The position numbers were made by a program, and so were the translations under genes. Below the pieces are notes generated by a model that saw nothing but the letters and a program-made list of their open reading frames with translations, had not been told where the DNA came from and did no database searches. A stretch of DNA of 64,000 bases, taken from NCBI RefSeq assembly GCF_013315695.1, contig NZ_CP054354.1; one strand, given 5' to 3'. Below, one piece after another: positions 6,680 through 39,902 of this stretch (position 1 is the stretch's first letter; each line of letters opens with the position of its first letter). Source of the stretch: Escherichia coli (GTDB lineage: Bacteria; Pseudomonadota; Gammaproteobacteria; Enterobacterales; Enterobacteriaceae).

Positions 6680-6982
6680 TTATCTTTGTTTTACTTCTGC
6701 TATCAATCGTGATACCTCTGTTTTTGATAGTGTTTTAAGTGCTTCTACCGCCGCCCTGACAACATCAGAACGATTCACTCTGCCTTTACCTGAAACCATC
6801 TCAGCCGTTATAAGGGCATCAATGTCTTTTAGGTTTTCTTCAAAAAAAGAAATACTCACTGGTTTTGCTTTGCTTACAACCGATGATTTATCTGATGACT
6901 TTTTGGTATTATCAAGGCCAGCCGTGCCACCGTTAATAAATGCTGCCTCGTCACGAGGTGAAGTGTTTGCTCTATTTCTCAC
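6680..6982 (-). CDS. Partition centromere-binding protein, ParG-like (predicted ribbon-helix-helix C-terminus)
   Basis: 100 aa; GTG start overlapping the ParA stop (GTGA); C-terminal GRVNRSDVVRAAVEALKTL fits a strand-helix-helix pattern; sits immediately after a small ParA. Confidence 0.55.
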   Translation of the reverse strand: MRNRANTSPRDEAAFINGGTAGLDNTKKSSDKSSVVSKAKPVSISFFEENLKDIDALITAEMVSGKGRVNRSDVVRAAVEALKTLSKTEVSRLIAEVKQR

Positions 6983-9794: not shown

Positions 9795-9810
9795 CTGTAT
9801 GTTTATACAG
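9795..9810 (-). promoter_or_regulatory. LexA (SOS) box CTGT-N8-ACAG upstream of impC
   Basis: ctgtatgtttatacag at 9795-9810, 25 bp upstream of the impC start. Confidence 0.75.
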
Positions 9811-10164
9811 TATTCTAATAACTGAATCCGCACACAGTCAAATGTCATTGTTGTGACTAAAAAACGCTCAATTCTCTGAGTGTGTGGCTGTATGCCTGCT
9901 GTGGGCTGCTGTGTCCAGCTTATCCACAGCATTTTGTGCACGGTTCTGTGGACAAAATACCTGGTTACCCAGGCCGTGCCGGCACGTTAACCGGGCTGCA
10001 TCCGATGCAAGTGTGTCGCTGTCGCCGGCCTCCTCACCCGGTCACGTTTCGTCGTTCCTCCTCCACGCGCTGCGGCTTCGGGGCCGCACCTGCATTCGTA
10101 TGCGGTCGCCCGGTAACAGGTGCGGCACGGCCTGATGGAGGCCGCATGTGAGAGGAGAATTCCC

Positions 10165-32692: not shown

Positions 32693-33797
32693 TGTGATAC
32701 TCCTCGCTATCTGTTGCTTTCAGGAAGAGGCGAACGGAAGTGGCGTCTTTCAGGATGCCGGACGGCAGGTGCCAGCCGGTATCTGATAACACCCAGGGGG
32801 TTCCGCCAAAACCGAACTGGCGGAAAGCCTGGTTATTGACATCGATGGCAGCACGTGCGGCGGTCAGACACTGTCCATCCTGTGCGGCCGGTGCATCGCC
32901 GGTGGGGGCCATACCACTGTCAGCGGAATACAGCTGATGCCATCCGGTCGCCCGTTTTTGTGAGTCCGGTTCACACAGCAGCGGAGCAGTCCGCTTTGTA
33001 CTGGACTCCCCGCCAATCACGGAGACCGGATAAATCACCACGCTGAATTCCCGGGCCAGTTGCTTAAGCGCGGGTTCCAGCAGACGGCAGTTGATGCATG
33101 CGGGGTCAAGGAAGGCGTACAGCGTGCGTTCATGACCAGTGGACAGGTTAATGGTGAACATCCCCCGGTCTGCGTTGCGTTTAAGTACTGTGGCCAGATT
33201 ACGGCGGGCCTCAGCGGCCTGAACGTGTTGTTCTTCCGTCACTGCCGTCGGGGCGGGGGCAGAAGAAGGTTCCTGCTGTGTGGGAGCCGGGCGGACCGGG
33301 ATGCTGTTAACATGATGTTCCGTATGTGGGCGTGGTGTCTCTGTGTCGGTTACTGGTTCAGCTCTCCATTCCTGAGATGTAGGGTAAGCCAGCGTGGAAG
33401 GGGACTCTGCCTTCATCCAGTGGTAACCTGCAACTGTCGCCGGCAGAGCAATTCCGGCGATAAAGCCACACATCAGTGTCCGCCAGAAGCCATTTTTCCG
33501 GGAGGGATGTTTTCCTTTTCCGGCATATTCGGCATCCAGGCAGGCATCAATCGCTGAGAGCATTCTGCCGATGTGATGTCCGGGACGTTCTGCATCAACG
33601 GTATCAACAAGCACCGTTTCGGTTATTTCGCGAAAAGGGGAACTGAAGGACAGGTGCATCAGCCTGTTATTACGGTTAATCAGTGCGCCCAGTTCTGTGA
33701 CTGGCAGGATGGCAATCACCTCCCGATTACCGTCAGGGTACAGGGCGGTCAGGGACAGGTGTTTATTATTCAGTGTTGCAGTGTAGTGGATGGTCAT
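32673..33797 (-). CDS. trbB: TrbB, thioredoxin-fold disulfide isomerase-like
   Basis: 374 aa; CxxC motif (DPACINC) in the C-terminal domain; start overlaps trbA stop (ATGA). Confidence 0.75.
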   Translation of the reverse strand: MTIHYTATLNNKHLSLTALYPDGNREVIAILPVTELGALINRNNRLMHLSFSSPFREITETVLVDTVDAERPGHHIGRMLSAIDACLDAEYAGKGKHPSRKNGFWRTLMCGFIAGIALPATVAGYHWMKAESPSTLAYPTSQEWRAEPVTDTETPRPHTEHHVNSIPVRPAPTQQEPSSAPAPTAVTEEQHVQAAEARRNLATVLKRNADRGMFTINLSTGHERTLYAFLDPACINCRLLEPALKQLAREFSVVIYPVSVIGGESSTKRTAPLLCEPDSQKRATGWHQLYSADSGMAPTGDAPAAQDGQCLTAARAAIDVNNQAFRQFGFGGTPWVLSDTGWHLPSGILKDATSVRLFLKATDSEEYHNEPAPR

Positions 33798-35137
33798 TGT
33801 TCTTTTTCCTTGTCGGCGGGATGCTGTTTTTCGGTGGTTTCGGTGGTTTCGGTGGTTTCGGTGGTTTCGGTGGTTTCGGTGGTTTCGGTGGTTTCGGTGG
33901 TTTCGGTGGTTTCGGTGGTTTCACCAGTGTCAGTGTCTTCGTCGTTATCATGGCGGCGGGGTATCACGTCATCCGTGAGTGACCAGCGGGTTCTGATCTG
34001 ACGTTTACGATCGCGATCTGGCTGAGGTTCGTCCCATATCAGGCCCAGCCCCAGCATGTCCCGTCGAAGCCCTTCAATGGCCTCTTCCACACAGGGTTCC
34101 GGGCAGGGGAGGCCGAGACGGCTGGCTTCATTTTCTGCCCGGGCAACGGCCACCACGCCGGCCCCTTCGATGAAGCCTTTTGTGGTGTTTGCCCGGTGAA
34201 GGGCATAGAAGAGCGTCCGGTCAACGCCCTTGAGCCACAGCCAGTTGGGGGGCGTCAGGCGCAAATCATGTGCGTAAAGCCAGACCAGACCGCTGCGAAC
34301 GTAACGGTGCTGCCTGAGCCACTGTTGTGCACCTTCTGTTTTTATGACCCGGATAAAGGCGTTTCTGGCCAGTGAATACACTGGCGTGCTGAAACGCCCC
34401 TGGTCCCGCTTGCTTTTGAGTCTGCAGGAGAGGTTGAGGTTATTCATCAGGGAAACAGCCGCTTTCCGGTCCCCGAGGAAGAACTGCAGGCCAAAGACGG
34501 CAAAGAGCGCTTTTTCATGTGGAGCCATGTCTTTCCAGGTGGTCAGAGGCTGGCCCAGCTGCGCCATAAAGCGCTGGCGCGTGGCCGCAACATCGAGCTG
34601 CATGTTGCGGATAAGGTTGTTCTGCGCCACAAAGACTTCCGGGGTTAGAGCGACACGGCGCTCGGGACGTTTTTGTCCGTGGAAGAGTCTGTTGCTGTCT
34701 CCGTCAGCCAGAACGGGGGCGATCGCCGGTGACAGTGATGAAAACAGATGTGGCAGCGTGTGGATATTCAGTGGTCTGCGGGTGAAGCGGGGCTGGGCCG
34801 GATGCTGAAACCACATCCACAGAAAGCCGATCGTCATGGGAAGCAGAATCAGCCAGAGGATCCCCACGGTCTGTGACATGACATCCAGCCACTGGCTGAA
34901 AGTGATCGTTGCAGCGTTGTTGGCGGTGTTGGCCAGCAGGTTATAACGGGGGGCGGCAAAATGGTGAAAAGGCCCCCAGTCAGTCATCCCCCACATTGTG
35001 TGCAGGATCAGGCAGGTGGCAAAGACGATGTCGGGTAAAAAGAGCCAGATGAGAAGCGCAAAGAGCAGACATATGGTGCCAACGATATACCATATGTTCA
35101 TCGGGTCTTCTGTTGTGGGGGAGTGTTGGTAAGACAC
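33794..35137 (-). CDS. trbA: TrbA (membrane protein) with a C-terminal Thr-Thr-Glu repeat tract
   Basis: 447 aa; GTG start 7 nt after GGAGG; N-terminal transmembrane segments; C-terminus (TTE)x9. Confidence 0.75.
   Translation of the reverse strand: MSYQHSPTTEDPMNIWYIVGTICLLFALLIWLFLPDIVFATCLILHTMWGMTDWGPFHHFAAPRYNLLANTANNAATITFSQWLDVMSQTVGILWLILLPMTIGFLWMWFQHPAQPRFTRRPLNIHTLPHLFSSLSPAIAPVLADGDSNRLFHGQKRPERRVALTPEVFVAQNNLIRNMQLDVAATRQRFMAQLGQPLTTWKDMAPHEKALFAVFGLQFFLGDRKAAVSLMNNLNLSCRLKSKRDQGRFSTPVYSLARNAFIRVIKTEGAQQWLRQHRYVRSGLVWLYAHDLRLTPPNWLWLKGVDRTLFYALHRANTTKGFIEGAGVVAVARAENEASRLGLPCPEPCVEEAIEGLRRDMLGLGLIWDEPQPDRDRKRQIRTRWSLTDDVIPRRHDNDEDTDTGETTETTETTETTETTETTETTETTETTETTEKQHPADKEKEQ
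33832..33921. repeat. Perfect 9-bp tandem repeat (cggtggttt x10) encoding the TrbA TTE tract
   Basis: Ten exact units at 33832-33921. Confidence 0.9.
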
Positions 35138-35281
35138 GAGGATTCCTCCATCGATAAATAGATAAATTTCGGGATGAGGCTGAGTGGAATTAATGCGAAC
35201 AATCGCCGGTAATGACCGGGCAGGGCTGAATTCAGCAGGGCATTTTCACAGGAACAACAGAAGGTGGTGAGAGACAGGCAC

Positions 35282-35312
35282 AAAAAAGCCGACTGGTGAG
35301 GCCGGCTTTTTT
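35282..35312. terminator. Hairpin flanked by A-run and T-run (bidirectional terminator geometry) at the start of type I module 1
   Basis: aaaaaagccgactggtgaggccggctttttt; on the minus strand the hairpin is followed by a T-run. Confidence 0.55.
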
Positions 35313-35375
35313 GCGATCCCAGGGAGAGTGGGTGGCTCTGGCCCGGAGGAAGTCTCTTTTCAACTAACGTTACCA
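35313..35375 (-). ncRNA. Predicted antisense sRNA for module 1 (cis-encoded upstream, minus strand)
   Basis: 35335-35367 repeats 35570-35601 (in the toxin leader) at ~31/33; a minus-strand transcript here would be complementary to the leader and end at the 35282-35312 terminator. Not demonstrated. Confidence 0.3.
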
Positions 35376-35673
35376 GAATATCGTTATATTCACCTGATCG
35401 CAATCTGTTCGTTACAGTCTATTGTTCCGGGAGTAGCGATATCGCCTGAAACAAGTATAATCAGCAAGTTAGCCTTGTCTGGAGACTTACCTTCGCATCA
35501 ATCCATCGGGACTATGGATCTGTGCTATTCAAAGACCTGGGCGGACAAACAGGTGGTGCTGCGTCTGGTGCTCTGGCCGGAGGAAGTCTCTTTTCAGCTA
35601 ACAATGAAAGAGCTGTTGTGACAGGCAATGTAAGAGTAAACAACAGTGATTTCCTCCATTGATGGAGAAACGG

Positions 35674-35769
35674 ATGATTAACCTGTTAATCATCGTTCTC
35701 AGGGCGGTTGTTGCTGTGGCTAACGCAGTGATAGCTCTCCTGGAACTGATCCGGGAACTGGTTGACTGA
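35674..35769 (+). CDS. DinQ/TisB-like type I toxin, copy 1 (31 aa, single transmembrane helix)
   Basis: MINLLIIVLRAVVAVANAVIALLELIRELVD; GGAG RBS 6 nt upstream next to a CCTCC stretch; strong terminator 35791-35816; below the ORF-track size cutoff. Confidence 0.6.
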   Translation: MINLLIIVLRAVVAVANAVIALLELIRELVD

Positions 35770-35790
35770 TAATCCCGGAAACGTACTTAA

Positions 35791-35819
35791 GGGCAGAGGG
35801 TCACCGCCCTCTGCCCTTT
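35791..35819 (+). terminator. Terminator hairpin after toxin copy 1
   Basis: gggcagaggg-tcaccg-ccctctgccc followed by ttt. Confidence 0.55.
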
Positions 35820-36010
35820 AATAATCTACGGACAGATTACTTTCTGTACTTCCAGAGCCTGTTTCTGTGAGTCAAACATGAGCTGGTTTTTACCGACTAC
35901 ACCCAAGTAAATATATTCGATATCTCCCATTTGCCGTATTTTCGTAAAATTCAACAGGAAATATTCAACGGGAGTGAGAGAACTGCTGTCCGGGGAGGAG
36001 GTACAGACGC

Positions 36011-36044
36011 AAAAAAACCGACTGGTGAGGCCGGTTTTTTTGCG
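36011..36044. terminator. Hairpin with flanking A/T runs at the start of type I module 2
   Basis: aaaaaaaccgactggtgaggccggttttttt, paralogue of 35282-35312. Confidence 0.55.
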
Positions 36045-36105
36045 ATTCCGGATCGAAGTTGGTAGCCCTGACCGGAAGATAACTGCCTATAACTGACTAT
36101 GAAAT
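36045..36105 (-). ncRNA. Predicted antisense sRNA for module 2
   Basis: 36071-36101 repeats 36254-36292 (toxin 2 leader) at ~26/30; repeat sequence differs from module 1. Confidence 0.3.
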
Positions 36106-36357
36106 AATACGGCTGAAATAATATTTCTGCAAGCACAGTATAAGTATATACTCGGTGTGTCAGCTTTGAGGCACGTTCTTTCCGGCATATCGTTCACCGG
36201 GATGAACAGGTTGCAAGTCCTGGCCAAAACATCAGGTGGTGCTGGTTTTGGTGCTCTGGCCGGAGAAGAACTGTCTATAACTGACACTATAGAAAACGTG
36301 GCGACAGGCAATGTAAGGGCAAACCACGGTGTTCTTTCTCCATTGATGGAGAAGCGG

Positions 36358-36453
36358 ATGATTAACCTGTTAATCATCGTTCTCAGGGCGGTTGTTGCTG
36401 TGGCTAACGCAGTGATAGCAATCCTGGAACTGATCCGGGAACTGGTTGACTGA
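36358..36453 (+). CDS. DinQ/TisB-like type I toxin, copy 2 (31 aa)
   Basis: MINLLIIVLRAVVAVANAVIAILELIRELVD, one substitution from copy 1; same RBS context and terminator. Confidence 0.6.
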   Translation: MINLLIIVLRAVVAVANAVIAILELIRELVD

Positions 36454-36473
36454 TAATCCCGGAAACGTACTTA

Positions 36474-36503
36474 AGGGCAGAGGGTCACCGCCTTCTGCCC
36501 TTT
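36474..36503 (+). terminator. Terminator hairpin after toxin copy 2
   Basis: gggcagaggg-tcaccg-ccttctgccc then ttt. Confidence 0.55.
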
Positions 36504-36515
36504 AACAAAATATGC

Positions 36516-36692
36516 TCAGGTTAAAAATCGAAAACCTTCCTGCACTTCCTGTGCCTGTTCCCGTGAGTCAAACATGAGCCGGCTTTTACCCGGAACTCCC
36601 CAGGAAATATATTCTACATCCACCCACCATTTTCCGTATTCTTCATACGGTCCGGATATCACTTTAGTGACAAATGCATCAACCAGGTTCAT
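36516..36692 (-). CDS. Hypothetical small protein (58 aa) convergent with toxin copy 2, possibly co-transcribed with nuc
   Basis: AAGGTG RBS then ATG at 36692; MNLVDAFVTKVISGPYEEYGKWWVD...; a frameshifted paralogous stretch lies at ~35830-35950. Confidence 0.35.
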   Translation of the reverse strand: MNLVDAFVTKVISGPYEEYGKWWVDVEYISWGVPGKSRLMFDSREQAQEVQEGFRFLT

Positions 36693-36842: not shown

Positions 36843-37310
36843 TTATTTCTTATTCTGTTTTCTCCAGGTCCATGGTGGTACCGGATTTTTATCTGCCCAT
36901 AATCCCCGCTTCAGGGCGCGGGCATCACGCTGGAGCGGCGGGAGAGTATAGTCATTATTGTAGTCCGGGTACACCCAGGCAGCGCCGTTACGGACCTGCC
37001 AGCGATTTGCTTCTGTGCCGTCAGCGGTATAGACCCGGCCGAGAATACGGCCATACCTGTCTGTCTGCGCGTATTGCACGGTTACGGGCTTTCCGGCCAC
37101 CAGGTCCTTCAGCTGAGTGGCTGACCAGCGTCCAAAGGGCTGTTTCTTTTCCGGTGCATCAATATTAGCCAGACGGACCCTGACAGGCTTTTTGTCCTGT
37201 AATATTTCCAGCGTATCACCATCAAGAACGCGGATGACGTGCCCCTGAATCTGTGCAGCACAGAGAGAAGCGGAAAAAATAATGGTGAGTGAAAAGATAT
37301 ATTTTATCAT
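36843..37310 (-). CDS. nuc: Secreted thermonuclease (micrococcal nuclease-like)
   Basis: 155 aa; signal peptide then VIRVLDGDTLEI...VRVRLANIDAPE, matching SNase active-site pattern; GGAG RBS. Confidence 0.85.
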   Translation of the reverse strand: MIKYIFSLTIIFSASLCAAQIQGHVIRVLDGDTLEILQDKKPVRVRLANIDAPEKKQPFGRWSATQLKDLVAGKPVTVQYAQTDRYGRILGRVYTADGTEANRWQVRNGAAWVYPDYNNDYTLPPLQRDARALKRGLWADKNPVPPWTWRKQNKK

Positions 37311-39420: not shown

Positions 39421-39749
39421 GATGTGTCCTTGTTTTTTATTATTTTGCATTTCAGAAAATAACACGATGCCTGCAGCCCGGAAAACAGATGTGTGCACAC
39501 GTAGTCACTTTCCGGCTTTATTTCTGTCCCTGACACAAAATACGTGGTGGCATGAAAAGGATTGTGGCGGACTGGAAAACGATTAGAATAGCGGCGGGCG
39601 CTTGAGGCTGTATGCCGAAAGCGTTTTGTGGACGGCATGTAGCAGAAAGCCCCAGGCGATTTTTTTATCAATCAACCCAGGGCCCACTGTAATGCCTCAA
39701 CAACATTATAGTAGCCCGATGACGGCCGAAAGGCAATGGAGGGGCTGCG

Positions 39750-39902
39750 ATGCCACAACGAACGTTTTTAATGATGTTAATCGTCGTCTGTGTGACGATA
39801 CTGTGTTTTGTCTGGATGGTGAGGGATTCGCTTTGCGGATTTCGTATCGAGCAGGGAAATACGGTGCTTGTGGCAACGTTAGCCTACGAAGTTAAACGTT
39901 AA
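39750..39902 (+). CDS. Hok/Gef-family type I toxin (PndA-like, 50 aa) with overlapping mok-like frame
   Basis: MPQRTFLMMLIVVCVTILCFVWMVRDSLCGFRIEQGNTVLVATLAYEVKR fits the Hok pattern (...R.SLC....G...V.A.LAYE.K); overlapping ORF 39692-39895 ends 7 nt before the hok stop, as mok does; below the ORF-track cutoff. Confidence 0.7.
   Translation: MPQRTFLMMLIVVCVTILCFVWMVRDSLCGFRIEQGNTVLVATLAYEVKR

Follow-up and report, generated by a model that had tools for sequence, protein, structure and literature searches.

Organization of the locus

Positions 35280-36505 of the window (the whole 64,000-nucleotide stretch of Escherichia coli contig NZ_CP054354.1 that was analysed) contain two paralogous modules side by side, and a repeat search gives an offset of 683-729 bp for the duplicated unit. 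Each module comprises a minus-strand sRNA gene, divergent promoters, a leader of ~200 nt, a 31-codon ORF and a terminator (Table 1). A tandem pair of modules had been described in a first-pass annotation of this DNA, and all of its elements were present on re-examination. Very probably the locus is a tandem of AgrB/DqlB type I toxin-antitoxin modules, both of them complete, carried by a conjugative plasmid of IncI1 type. Family membership, architecture, cognate-specific complementarity and covariation are established; transcription, processing, toxicity and killing after plasmid loss would be expected by analogy with the homologues on pOXA-48 and pOXA-484 and with dinQ.

The first-pass annotation regarded the modules as possibly undescribed, but the AgrB/DqlB family already has a name and an annotation, and its function has been validated by experiment for members from other plasmids. 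The dql naming dates from 2016 (PMC5066626), dqlB has been reported on 67.4% of IncI1 plasmids (PMC12365149), and 99.6%-identical plasmids such as IncI1 pHUSEC41-1 carry two PGAP annotations of dqlB at this site, the agrB genes being without annotation. Both ORFs are already dqlB in RefSeq and nothing new is needed there.

Table 1. Features of the tandem modules and of the adjoining ORFs.
Feature	Position	Strand	Basis or detail
AgrB1 sRNA, 88 nt	35280..35367	-	Rfam RF02891, 37.4 bits, E 5.6e-4, full-length model
AgrB1 promoter, predicted	35375..35403	-	-35 TTGCGA 35398-35403, 17-nt spacer, -10 TATTCT 35375-35380; read from sequence
dqlB1 promoter -10 and inferred start	35456..35468	+	-10 TATAAT 35456-35461; +1 = G of GTTAGC, 35468; dinQ alignment
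dqlB1 leader element 1 (GGAGACTTACCTTC)	35481..35494	+	predicted pairing with AgrB target in full-length minimum-energy fold; analogous to dinQ element 1
AgrB1 target (element 2), dqlB1 leader	35570..35602	+	direct repeat of 35343-35368
dqlB1 anti-SD TTCCTCC and SD GGAG (35664-35667) hairpin (elements 3 and 4)	35651..35667	+	sequence, fold
dqlB1 ORF, 31 aa, MINLLIIVLRAVVAVANAVIALLELIRELVD	35674..35769	+	NCBIfam NF041473, 63.7 bits; tblastn
dqlB1 terminator hairpin	35784..35823	+	inverted repeat, 17-nt arms; homologous to dinQ 3' hairpin
Remnant ORF, 42 codons, shortened from 58-codon ORF	35826..35954	-	80% repeat of 36536-36620
AgrB2 sRNA, 88 nt, terminator 36011-36041	36009..36096	-	Rfam RF02891, 47.7 bits, full-length model
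AgrB2 promoter	36104..36132	-	-35 TTGCAG 36127-36132, 17-nt spacer, -10 TATTAT 36104-36109; sequence and cross-locus conservation
dqlB2 promoter -10 and inferred start	36147..36159	+	-10 TATACT 36147-36152; +1 = G of GTCAGC, 36159; homology with dinQ and locus L003
dqlB2 leader element 1 (GTTCTTTCCGGC)	36175..36186	+	pairs with target in full-length minimum-energy fold
AgrB2 target (element 2), dqlB2 leader	36253..36285	+	repeat of 36065-36097, 82%
dqlB2 anti-SD and SD GGAG (36348-36351) hairpin, 7-bp stem	36332..36351	+	sequence, fold
dqlB2 ORF, 31 aa	36358..36453	+	NCBIfam NF041473, 66.2 bits
dqlB2 terminator hairpin	36468..36505	+	inverted repeat; 92% identical to module 1 3' region
Convergent 58-codon ORF, function unknown	36516..36692	-	phrog_8110, E 2e-18

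Each module carries a repeat of which one copy lies upstream and the other in the dqlB leader. In module 1 the second copy (35577-35602) is identical to the first at 25 of 26 positions, and the spacing of 234 nt agrees with the ~240 nt of the first-pass annotation; this figure does not hold for module 2, in which the 33-nt copies are 188 nt apart. The sole difference between the module 1 copies would give a G-U pair in the RNA duplex and, by inspection, so would four of the six differences in module 2. By our own estimate, with the ~1.3 million position pairs that 1.6 kb offers, a 25/26 match has a chance of ~1e-8. All 14 independent loci examined also share the two-copy design, with the register fixed at -72 to -110 relative to the start codon; the repeats are therefore not a product of chance.

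The remnant ORF marks the 3' end of the first duplicated unit, with similarity stopping near 35925, and has no family match in NCBIfam or PHROGs. The 58-codon ORF, although within the duplicated DNA, is treated here as a neighbour rather than as part of the system; beside dqlB on some IncI1 plasmids it is annotated as 'hypothetical', and on others different genes occupy its place. No third copy of the module was found in the window using tblastn and Rfam. Plus-strand ORFs of 97 and 98 codons (35328-35621 and 36157-36453) were considered as genes but were treated as spurious: they have no family match of their own, they overlap AgrB or the leader, and conservation between the modules is lowest where they are located. 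The 98-codon ORF matches NCBIfam solely through its in-frame C-terminal DqlB part, and the annotated 97-codon 'hypothetical protein' that spans AgrB1 and the dqlB1 leader is probably spurious.

DqlB toxins

The DqlB1 and DqlB2 sequences differ at a single residue (L22I), and the ORFs are 98% identical at the nucleotide level. Both exceed the 35-bit curated equivalog cut-off of NF041473 (DinQ_rel, 'DinQ-like type I toxin DqlB') and match this model over residues 1-31 of 31. The matches to the model for DinQ proper (toxin_DinQ, NF041472) are weaker, at 22.2 and 19.1 bits, and are under its 30-bit cut-off. The peptides had been called DinQ/TisB-like, and the first half of that label is borne out by these scores; the second is not, as these two DinQ-type models were the only matches in the NCBIfam scan at E <= 0.1, with no TisB or ZorO match. 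The peptide of the window is identical at 25 of 31 residues to the IncL/M form (locus L007) and at 24 of 31 to the IncX3 form (locus L006). Representatives of both forms have proved in experiments to be toxic, to be neutralised by agrB and to stabilise plasmids (PMC12365149, PMC12317039), which by analogy favours the addiction role originally suggested for the present modules.

The dqlB promoters have weak -35 elements. A simple promoter scan missed the dqlB and agrB promoters, which were placed by homology instead. The toxin terminators were not called in a simple terminator scan because their T-tail is short, and were likewise placed by homology; that of dinQ is of the same design.

AgrB sRNAs

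AgrB1 falls just under the RF02891 gathering score of 40 bits and AgrB2 lies above it, while relatives with 5' tails near-identical to that of AgrB1 reach 52.8 bits (L010) and 55.3 bits (L004) on the same model. The 5' end of AgrB1 was placed by homology to the annotated E. coli agrB. The resulting predicted RNA has a single-stranded 5' tail of ~20 nt, stem-loop 1 and a Rho-independent terminator (35282-35312), and its fold resembles that of E. coli AgrB; the fold of AgrB2 has a z-score of -4.6. The hairpins at the ends of both sRNAs each consist of an A-run, a stem and a T-run. The first-pass annotation anticipated that the upstream repeat copy would belong to a minus-strand sRNA, and in each module this copy does sit in the 5' tail of a predicted AgrB-type sRNA.

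The TTGC..-17-TA...T promoter layout also precedes most of the AgrB genes used for comparison, among them agrA and agrB of E. coli. The inferred 5' ends of the sRNA and the toxin mRNA are 101 nt apart in module 1 (35367/35468) and 63 nt apart in module 2 (36096/36159). T1TAdb (PMC8594479) defines the DinQ/AgrB type by an sRNA gene that lies 5' of the toxin mRNA and is divergent, non-overlapping and within 300-500 nt of it, and both modules have this placement.

Leader elements and access to the SD

The +1, the agrB site (G88-A119) and the SD (G184-G187) of dinQ have been published (PMC5066626). These map to equivalent positions in dqlB, and both the layout and the leader are co-linear with those of E. 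coli dinQ. Access to the SD in dinQ is controlled by the mutually exclusive leader pairings 1:2, 2:3 and 3:4 (PMC5066626). The predicted pairings are 1:2, 2:3 and 3:4 for dqlB1, and 1:2 and 3:4 for dqlB2, with 2:3 disfavoured, in an analysis that weakly reproduced the dinQ control. The GGAG of each module pairs with an upstream CTCCA, which is part of a CCTCC stretch in module 1; the first-pass annotation placed such a stretch next to GGAG in both modules, but module 2 has TCTCC.

The predicted fold of dqlB1 reproduces the dinQ switch. The SD is closed in the full-length mRNA (unpaired probability 0.003), partly open after most 5' truncations of 16-68 nt (0.2-0.4) and closed again when the target is blocked (0.00). 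The SD of dqlB2 is predicted to stay closed under every truncation (P 0.01), but this is a low-power test in which dinQ, the positive control, likewise shows little opening in silico at +44 (0.06).

Pairing specificity and covariation

Membership of the type calls for an sRNA whose 5' tail is complementary over at least 15 nt (about 31-35 in known cases) to a stretch of the toxin 5' UTR that precedes the SD. Each cognate duplex here has 33 predicted pairs, and relative to the ATG the targets span -107 to -72 and -109 to -73. AgrB1 pairs with its own target at 24 of 24 positions, and AgrB2 at 22 of 24, 20 of these Watson-Crick (ungapped, first 24 nt); in the crossed pairs six of 24 positions are unpaired. 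Each sRNA was also computed against both leaders, as the first-pass annotation had proposed. The predicted energies are -59.8 kcal/mol for AgrB1:dqlB1 and -51.2 kcal/mol for AgrB2:dqlB2, compared with -33.9 and -38.4 kcal/mol for the crossed sRNA-leader duplexes. As a calibration, the E. coli duplexes give -59.9 kcal/mol for AgrB:dinQ, which is functional, and -44.4 kcal/mol for AgrA:dinQ, which is not. The AgrB2 duplex, at -51 kcal/mol, lies between these calibrators and is weaker than that of its single-copy relative L003 (-62 kcal/mol). Three positions of AgrB2 have drifted from the L003 version, which matches the same target perfectly.

In the comparison of 14 modules, the share of paired cells is 93.5%; it falls to 77% in shuffles and to 41-47% with the partner slid. 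Both-sided changes occur at 16 of 24 pairs and the observed covariation score was reached by none of 500 shuffles, with the register for the count picked per module by maximal pairing. Together with the cognate energies, this 14-locus covariation supports the reading of the module-specific repeats as covarying antisense/target pairs, as in dinQ/agrB. In the pOXA-48 system, repression was lost when a mismatch of 4 nt was introduced and returned with a compensatory change (PMC12365149). Because the recognition sequences differ between the modules, each AgrB should, on the modelled duplexes, neutralise its own dqlB alone.

Proposed mechanism and alternative readings

In the mechanism that we propose, a sigma-70 promoter in each module would produce a dqlB mRNA of ~360 nt. 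In the full-length mRNA the 5' end (element 1) would pair with the internal leader segment (element 2), leaving the anti-SD element 3 to sequester GGAG, so that the transcript would be translationally inert. By analogy with dinQ, 5' processing would free element 2 to capture element 3, opening the ribosome-binding site for translation of a small hydrophobic inner-membrane toxin. The divergent and presumably unstable 88-nt AgrB would pair with element 2 through its single-stranded 5' tail, which would re-close the SD hairpin and probably trigger RNase III cleavage, as shown for dinQ. On loss of the plasmid the sRNA would decay first and the toxin would kill the cell (post-segregational killing).

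It is unlikely, in our view, that one module alone works as a toxin-antitoxin pair and that the other is a redundant copy decaying after duplication or recombination. The sub-threshold Rfam score of AgrB1 and the drift of AgrB2 from the L003 version could be read in this way, but promoter, tail, stem-loop and terminator are kept in both sRNAs, and in each module cognate pairing is predicted to be much stronger than crossed pairing. Similarly, the SD hairpin of dqlB2 is longer and is predicted never to open, and the adjacent small ORF copy is already truncated, yet both toxin ORFs are intact and close to identical. The arrangement is also fixed in ~235 plasmid records, and counter-selection would be expected against an intact toxin with a failing antitoxin.

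We consider it very unlikely that the modules are stress-induced membrane modulators like chromosomal dinQ, or abortive-infection (anti-phage) devices, and not mainly addiction systems. This reading draws on the homology to SOS-regulated dinQ and on a candidate SOS box reported 119 nt upstream of dqlB in the IncI1 plasmid pTF2 (PMC12211044). The homologous CTG-N10-CAG motifs (35537-35552 and 36220-36235), which are the only ones in the region, lie ~70-80 nt inside the inferred transcript, within the inferred 5' UTR, and the dinQ segment with which they align (CTGGTCAGAAGTACGG) does not constitute a LexA box. In dinQ the genuine box (TACTGTATGATTATCCAGTT) is located over the -10, where the dqlB promoters have no CTG-N10-CAG, and control by LexA/SOS was rejected. 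A defence role was also suggested in the first-pass annotation, but a PADLOC scan of the region gave no match; the PHROGs match is limited to the neighbouring 58-aa ORF and is to a family of unknown function, so that a link to defence or phage was likewise set aside. In experiments, the homologues behave as addiction modules.

A third reading, in which trbA has its transcribed leader or a regulatory region here and the small ORFs are incidental, is effectively refuted by the context-independent distribution of the modules, which lie far from any trbA on IncX, IncL/M, IncN, IncP and IncF plasmids. Transcription of AgrB1 does run in the direction of trbA, with 143 bp between the AgrB1 terminator and the start of the trbA ORF downstream, but this terminator is strong and separates the two, and the ORFs match a curated family model.

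Comparison with related systems

Two plasmid homologues of the tandem AgrB/DqlB modules were characterized in 2025. The DqlB-AgrB of pOXA-48 (IncL), a base-pairing-dependent addiction module (PMC12365149), likewise has a 31-aa DqlB and an upstream divergent antisense RNA complementary to the 5' UTR; DqlB kills on plasmid loss, and mismatch and compensatory mutants demonstrate that repression depends on base pairing (PMC12365149). It differs in being a single module with a different recognition sequence, and the AgrB of the IncL/M form is a shorter RNA in which the first stem-loop of the AgrB type is missing and which is below Rfam detection. The DqlB-AgrB of pOXA-484 (IncX3) is also an addiction module, in which agrB, linked to the toxin gene, neutralises the toxin, and a test plasmid is stabilised (PMC12317039). 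The IncX3 form (L006) has an Rfam-detectable AgrB (47.8 bits), but it has a GTAGAGAG-type recognition sequence, is present in single copy and is flanked by transposable elements instead of transfer genes.

The chromosomal dinQ-agrA/agrB system of E. coli K-12 (PMC3567139, PMC5066626) resembles the window modules in gene order, elements 1-4, SD hairpin and AgrB architecture, and its AgrB site likewise lies ~75-110 nt upstream of the start codon. DinQ differs in having 27 residues and in being LexA-controlled, with a box over its -10 that the window modules lack. Duplicated sRNA genes are common to both, and in E. coli solely the well-matched sRNA represses. There the sRNA gene alone is duplicated, whereas here the whole module is, and each sRNA has a matching toxin.

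The zorO-orzO/zorP-orzP locus of E. coli O157 (PMC5397157) also has a small toxin, a long 5' UTR whose processing permits translation, divergent non-overlapping sRNAs that pair with the leader and two tandem paralogous modules. The first-pass annotation drew this parallel, and for the sRNAs it holds for the terminator stem-loop (loop CUCACCAG) but no further: the OrzO-P Rfam matches cover the terminator alone (model positions 46-76) and, at 30.8 and 28.7 bits, stay well short of the 60-bit gathering score. The window toxin matches DinQ-type models instead of ZorO.

A copy of the hok/sok (pnd) system of IncI plasmids lies 3 kb away in the window (sok 39596-39752, 124.7 bits). It too is a plasmid-borne type I system for addiction, whose full-length mRNA is inert until activated by processing. 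Sok overlaps its target (cis-encoded), the Hok/Gef toxin family is unrelated to DqlB, and activation of the hok mRNA is by 3' and not 5' processing.

Distribution and possible exchange of specificities

The same pair, which the first-pass annotation proposed to look for in other I-complex plasmids, is present with both specificities stacked in ~235 PLSDB plasmids. Each of the two recognition specificities also occurs alone, on IncI1 backbones that are nearly identical apart from what appears to be a swapped cassette of 271 bp (one backbone pair examined). No description of the stacking or of the cassette swap was found in the literature searched on dinQ or DinQ-like systems and plasmids, and the terms 'tandem' and 'two copies' are absent from the main text of PMC12365149.

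We tentatively suggest, as a possibility that falls short of being probable, that there is a 'specificity cassette' of ~270 bp, consisting of the 5' tail of AgrB, the divergent promoter pair and the dqlB leader, which is exchanged as a unit among IncI1 backbones that are otherwise near-identical, creating mutually orthogonal addiction alleles, and that the lineage of the window has stacked two of them. If so, a plasmid with both alleles would not be displaceable by a related plasmid with either one, because the AgrB of the competitor would leave the other toxin unsilenced. Addiction specificity would then be a weapon in competition between related plasmids, and would diversify by recombination rather than by point mutation. 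Modules that are predicted not to cross-protect, together with swapped cassettes, would offer a natural system for the study of type I antitoxin specificity divergence and plasmid competition.

The IncI1 plasmid pESBL has been reported to kill segregants that have lost it even when pnd is absent, an observation implying that a further, hidden toxin-antitoxin system exists (PMC7602700). AgrB/DqlB is a direct candidate for this system, since pESBL-EA11 carries dqlB 0.8 kb from pnd.

Identity and layout of the modules

Two paralogous units occupy 35280–36505, with an offset of 683–729 bp by sequence-repeat analysis; they are referred to here as modules 1 and 2, each pairing a dqlB toxin gene with a minus-strand AgrB antisense RNA. 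Each begins with an A-run, stem, T-run hairpin and ends, after a 31-codon ORF, with a G+C-rich terminator hairpin. Between repeat and ORF the GGAG ribosome-binding site sits within a CTCCA/TGGAG hairpin. In module 1 the segment 35343–35368 recurs at 35577–35602 (25/26 identical, distance 234 nt), and in module 2 the segment 36065–36097 recurs at 36253–36285 (82% identity, distance 188 nt). The first-pass annotation had described this arrangement accurately, except that it gave a repeat spacing of ~240 nt, which does not hold for module 2, and a CCTCC anti-Shine–Dalgarno (anti-SD) stretch, which in module 2 reads TCTCC.

Features of the module region and of other sites in the window
Feature	Coordinates	Strand	Remarks
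CTG-N10-CAG site pair	9795–9810; 9822–9837		CTGTATGTTTATACAG; CTGAATCCGCACACAG
trbA	33794–35137	minus	left neighbour of modules
Tandem repeat in trbA	33829–33922		TTTCGGTGG
AgrB1	35280–35367	minus	
AgrB2	36009–36096	minus	
Leftmost hairpins	35282–35312; 36011–36041	minus (as AgrB terminators)	modules 1; 2
97-codon ORF	35328–35621	plus	
AgrB1 promoter, inferred	35398–35403 + 35375–35380	minus	TTGCGA-17-TATTCT
AgrB2 promoter, inferred	36127–36132 + 36104–36109	minus	TTGCAG-17-TATTAT
dqlB1 start, inferred	~35468	plus	after TATAAT 35456–35461; dinQ alignment
dqlB2 start, inferred	~36159	plus	after TATACT 36147–36152; dinQ alignment
dqlB1 element 1	35481–35494		
Leader CTG-N10-CAG	35537–35552; 36220–36235		dqlB1; dqlB2
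dqlB ORFs	35674–35769; 36358–36453		31 codons; one residue apart
42-codon paralogue	35826–35954	minus	truncated; after dqlB1
58-codon ORF	36516–36692	minus	convergent with dqlB2
Thermonuclease gene	36843–37310	minus	right neighbour of modules
sok RNA	39596–39752	plus	RF01794

The dqlB1 and dqlB2 ORFs match the NCBIfam model NF041473, 'DinQ-like type I toxin DqlB', with 63.7 and 66.2 bits (cut-off 35), and score weakly against the true DinQ model (22 and 19 bits, below its cut-off of 30). Rfam AgrB (RF02891, threshold 40) matches full length on the minus strand at both AgrB2 (47.7 bits) and AgrB1 (37.4 bits, E 5.6e-4). The hairpins previously read as bidirectional-looking are therefore AgrB terminators, and each upstream repeat copy forms the single-stranded 5' tail of its sRNA. 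The two RNAs are predicted to fold like E. coli AgrB, with a ~20-nt tail, stem-loop 1 and terminator. No third module copy was found within the window using tblastn and Rfam.

The pair is an already known system that had been correctly read: its kind and mechanism were rightly deduced from raw sequence. The suggestion that it was undescribed does not stand. The dql genes were named and seen on plasmids, some strains having more than one, by Kristiansen et al. (2016; PMC5066626), their AgrB partners were predicted in T1TAdb (PMC8594479), and in 2025 toxicity of DqlB, rescue by AgrB and plasmid stabilisation were reported for both pOXA-48 (IncL; PMC12365149) and pOXA-484 (IncX3; PMC12317039). 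The share of plasmids reported to carry dqlB is 67.4% for IncI1 and 83.2% for IncB/O/K/Z (PMC12365149). IncI1 plasmids including pHUSEC41-1 are 99.6% identical to the window over the module region, and PGAP already annotates two dqlB genes on them.

On pHUSEC41-1 the 97-codon ORF carries a hypothetical-protein annotation (WP_023636565.1) that is probably spurious: the ORF extends from AgrB1 through the promoters into the dqlB1 leader, matches no family and falls where the module is least conserved. The 58-codon ORF matches phrog_8110, of unknown function (E 2e-18); it lies beside dqlB on some IncI1 plasmids, with hha or other genes there on others.

Comparison with dinQ

The dinQ-agrA-agrB locus of E. 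coli K-12 is co-linear with both modules from the −10 element through the terminator. The published dinQ landmarks (+1, element 1 U16–C28, agrB site G88–A119, element 3 U167–U178 and SD G184–G187; PMC5066626) align to equivalent positions in both modules, which is the basis for placing the dqlB starts. The AgrB promoter layout recurs in most other loci compared, E. coli agrA and agrB among them.

Unlike dinQ, which has a LexA box, neither dqlB promoter contains one by sequence scan and dinQ alignment. Both leaders do carry a CTG-N10-CAG motif, the pTF2 homologue of which has been given as a candidate SOS box (PMC12211044). Here the motif falls ~70–80 nt downstream of the inferred dqlB start and aligns with a dinQ segment that is no box, which makes a conserved RNA element more likely than an SOS box. 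Elsewhere in the window, a pair of CTG-N10-CAG sites is separated by 27 bp. The pair is very similar to the two LexA boxes reported upstream of impCAB on pTF2, an IncI1 plasmid (PMC12211044), and is probably the SOS operator of an imp operon in the window.

Folding predictions for dqlB1 reproduce the dinQ model, in which element 1 is the 5' end of the leader, element 2 the AgrB target, element 3 the anti-SD and element 4 the SD. In the predicted full-length RNA element 1 pairs with the target and the SD is closed (unpaired probability 0.003). With 16–68 nt removed from the 5' end, GGAGGAA of the target can pair with TTCCTCC, and in most of these truncations the SD opens to 0.2–0.4; blocking the target, as a mimic of bound AgrB, shuts it again (0.00). 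For dqlB2 the 1:2 pairing and SD hairpin are also predicted, and the 7-bp hairpin never opens in silico; this says little, because the dinQ control likewise opens weakly at +44 (0.06). The AgrB tail and elements 1, 2 and 3 form a matched set that is particular to each module.

Pairing specificity and covariation

The claim that each sRNA pairs with its own leader is supported by duplex energies predicted from the first 36 nt of the two sRNAs: −59.8 (AgrB1:dqlB1) and −51.2 kcal/mol (AgrB2:dqlB2) for cognate pairs, against −33.9 (AgrB1:dqlB2) and −38.4 kcal/mol (AgrB2:dqlB1) for crossed pairs. For comparison, E. coli AgrB, which represses dinQ, gives −59.9 kcal/mol and AgrA, which does not, −44.4 kcal/mol. 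Repression on pOXA-48 was lost with a 4-nt mismatch and regained with a compensatory change (PMC12365149); as 6/24 positions are unpaired in the crossed pairs, the two modules are expected to be orthogonal. A reservation is that dqlB2 shares its exact target with the single-copy plasmid pEC00704_3, but AgrB2 differs from the AgrB of that plasmid at three positions, which accounts for its weaker predicted pairing (22/24 pairs, −51 kcal/mol, compared with 24/24 and −62).

Seventeen plasmid loci were fetched (IncI1/I-gamma, X1, X3, X4, X5, L/M, N, P and FIB). AgrB exceeded the Rfam threshold in 13; on IncL/M, IncN and IncP plasmids the sRNA is shorter and can be identified from its upstream repeat in the same way. 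The all-against-all duplex matrix falls into blocks, most sRNAs forming their strongest duplex with a cognate or same-type leader (non-cognate medians −28 to −44 kcal/mol). When 14 distinct modules were aligned without gaps over 24 pairs, 93.5% of cells were paired, versus 77% in shuffles and 41–47% with the partner slid by 1–3 columns. The predicted covariation of the repeats is borne out, with both sides changed in 16/24 pairs and the observed score reached by 0/500 shuffles. The register was picked module by module for best pairing, and is constant relative to the start codon (target ends at −73 to −80).

A separate, unrelated tandem agrB/dqlB pair with two different recognition types lies at 1753–2904 of the fetched pHNAH8160R locus (IncN/IncR/IncX1), where the first dqlB copy encodes a shortened 27-aa peptide.

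Recognition types and possible cassette exchange

Other IncI plasmids carry a single module, in the same two recognition types as the window: alpha (GAAAAGAG tail, as in AgrB1) in pSL476_91 and a further locus, L010, and beta (ATAGxCAG tail, as in AgrB2) in pEC00704_3 and pESBL-EA11. Between the IncI1 plasmids pEC00704_3 and pSL476_91 a 271-bp block (2557–2827 of the fetched pEC00704_3 locus; 116 mismatched columns) is replaced, covering AgrB nt 1–30, both promoters and the leader to −21. Identity is ~99–100% over ~1 kb on each side and reaches 100% in the dqlB ORF and 3' UTR. In the window the two ORFs are 98% identical and the target zones 28%, yet each ORF is just 85–86% identical to that of the single-copy plasmid with the same recognition type. 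Recognition cassette and ORF therefore differ in history, which suggests recombination or gene conversion. The tandem arrangement occurs in ~235 PLSDB records, this alpha leader in 221 and a beta leader in 815.

We found no description of the recognition types, cassette swap, ORF and cassette histories or tandem counts in the literature searched. The recognition-type, cassette and stacking points come from a small set of loci and from predictions. In our view the features particular to this locus (stacking in tandem, orthogonality and exchange of the cassette) are unproven and an incremental step, akin to the known behaviour of other duplicated type I loci such as zorO/zorP and agrA/agrB.

Neighbouring systems and other observations

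Poidevin et al. (2020; PMC7602700) found that the IncI plasmid pESBL without pnd still kills plasmid-free segregants, and a hidden second toxin–antitoxin system was proposed. We note that pESBL-EA11 carries a beta-type dqlB at 80800–80895 (6801–6896 of the fetched locus), 0.8 kb from pnd (Hok/Gef), an easily testable candidate for that system. The window also has a sok antitoxin RNA (124.7 bits), the sign of a further type I system (hok/sok, pnd-type) at a distance of 3 kb from the dqlB pair, giving at least three type I modules on the plasmid.

The AgrB terminator stem-loops (loop CUCACCAG) match the terminator part of OrzO-P with 30.8 (36011–36041) and 28.7 bits (35282–35312), and the same loop is found in most plasmid AgrB genes compared. 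The AgrB and OrzO antitoxins could share a common origin, or the likeness could be convergent. Lastly, the 3' end of trbA contains a perfect 9-bp tandem repeat (10.4 copies), which is translated as a (TET)n tract close to the TrbA C-terminus and whose other reading frames also yield long repeat ORFs.
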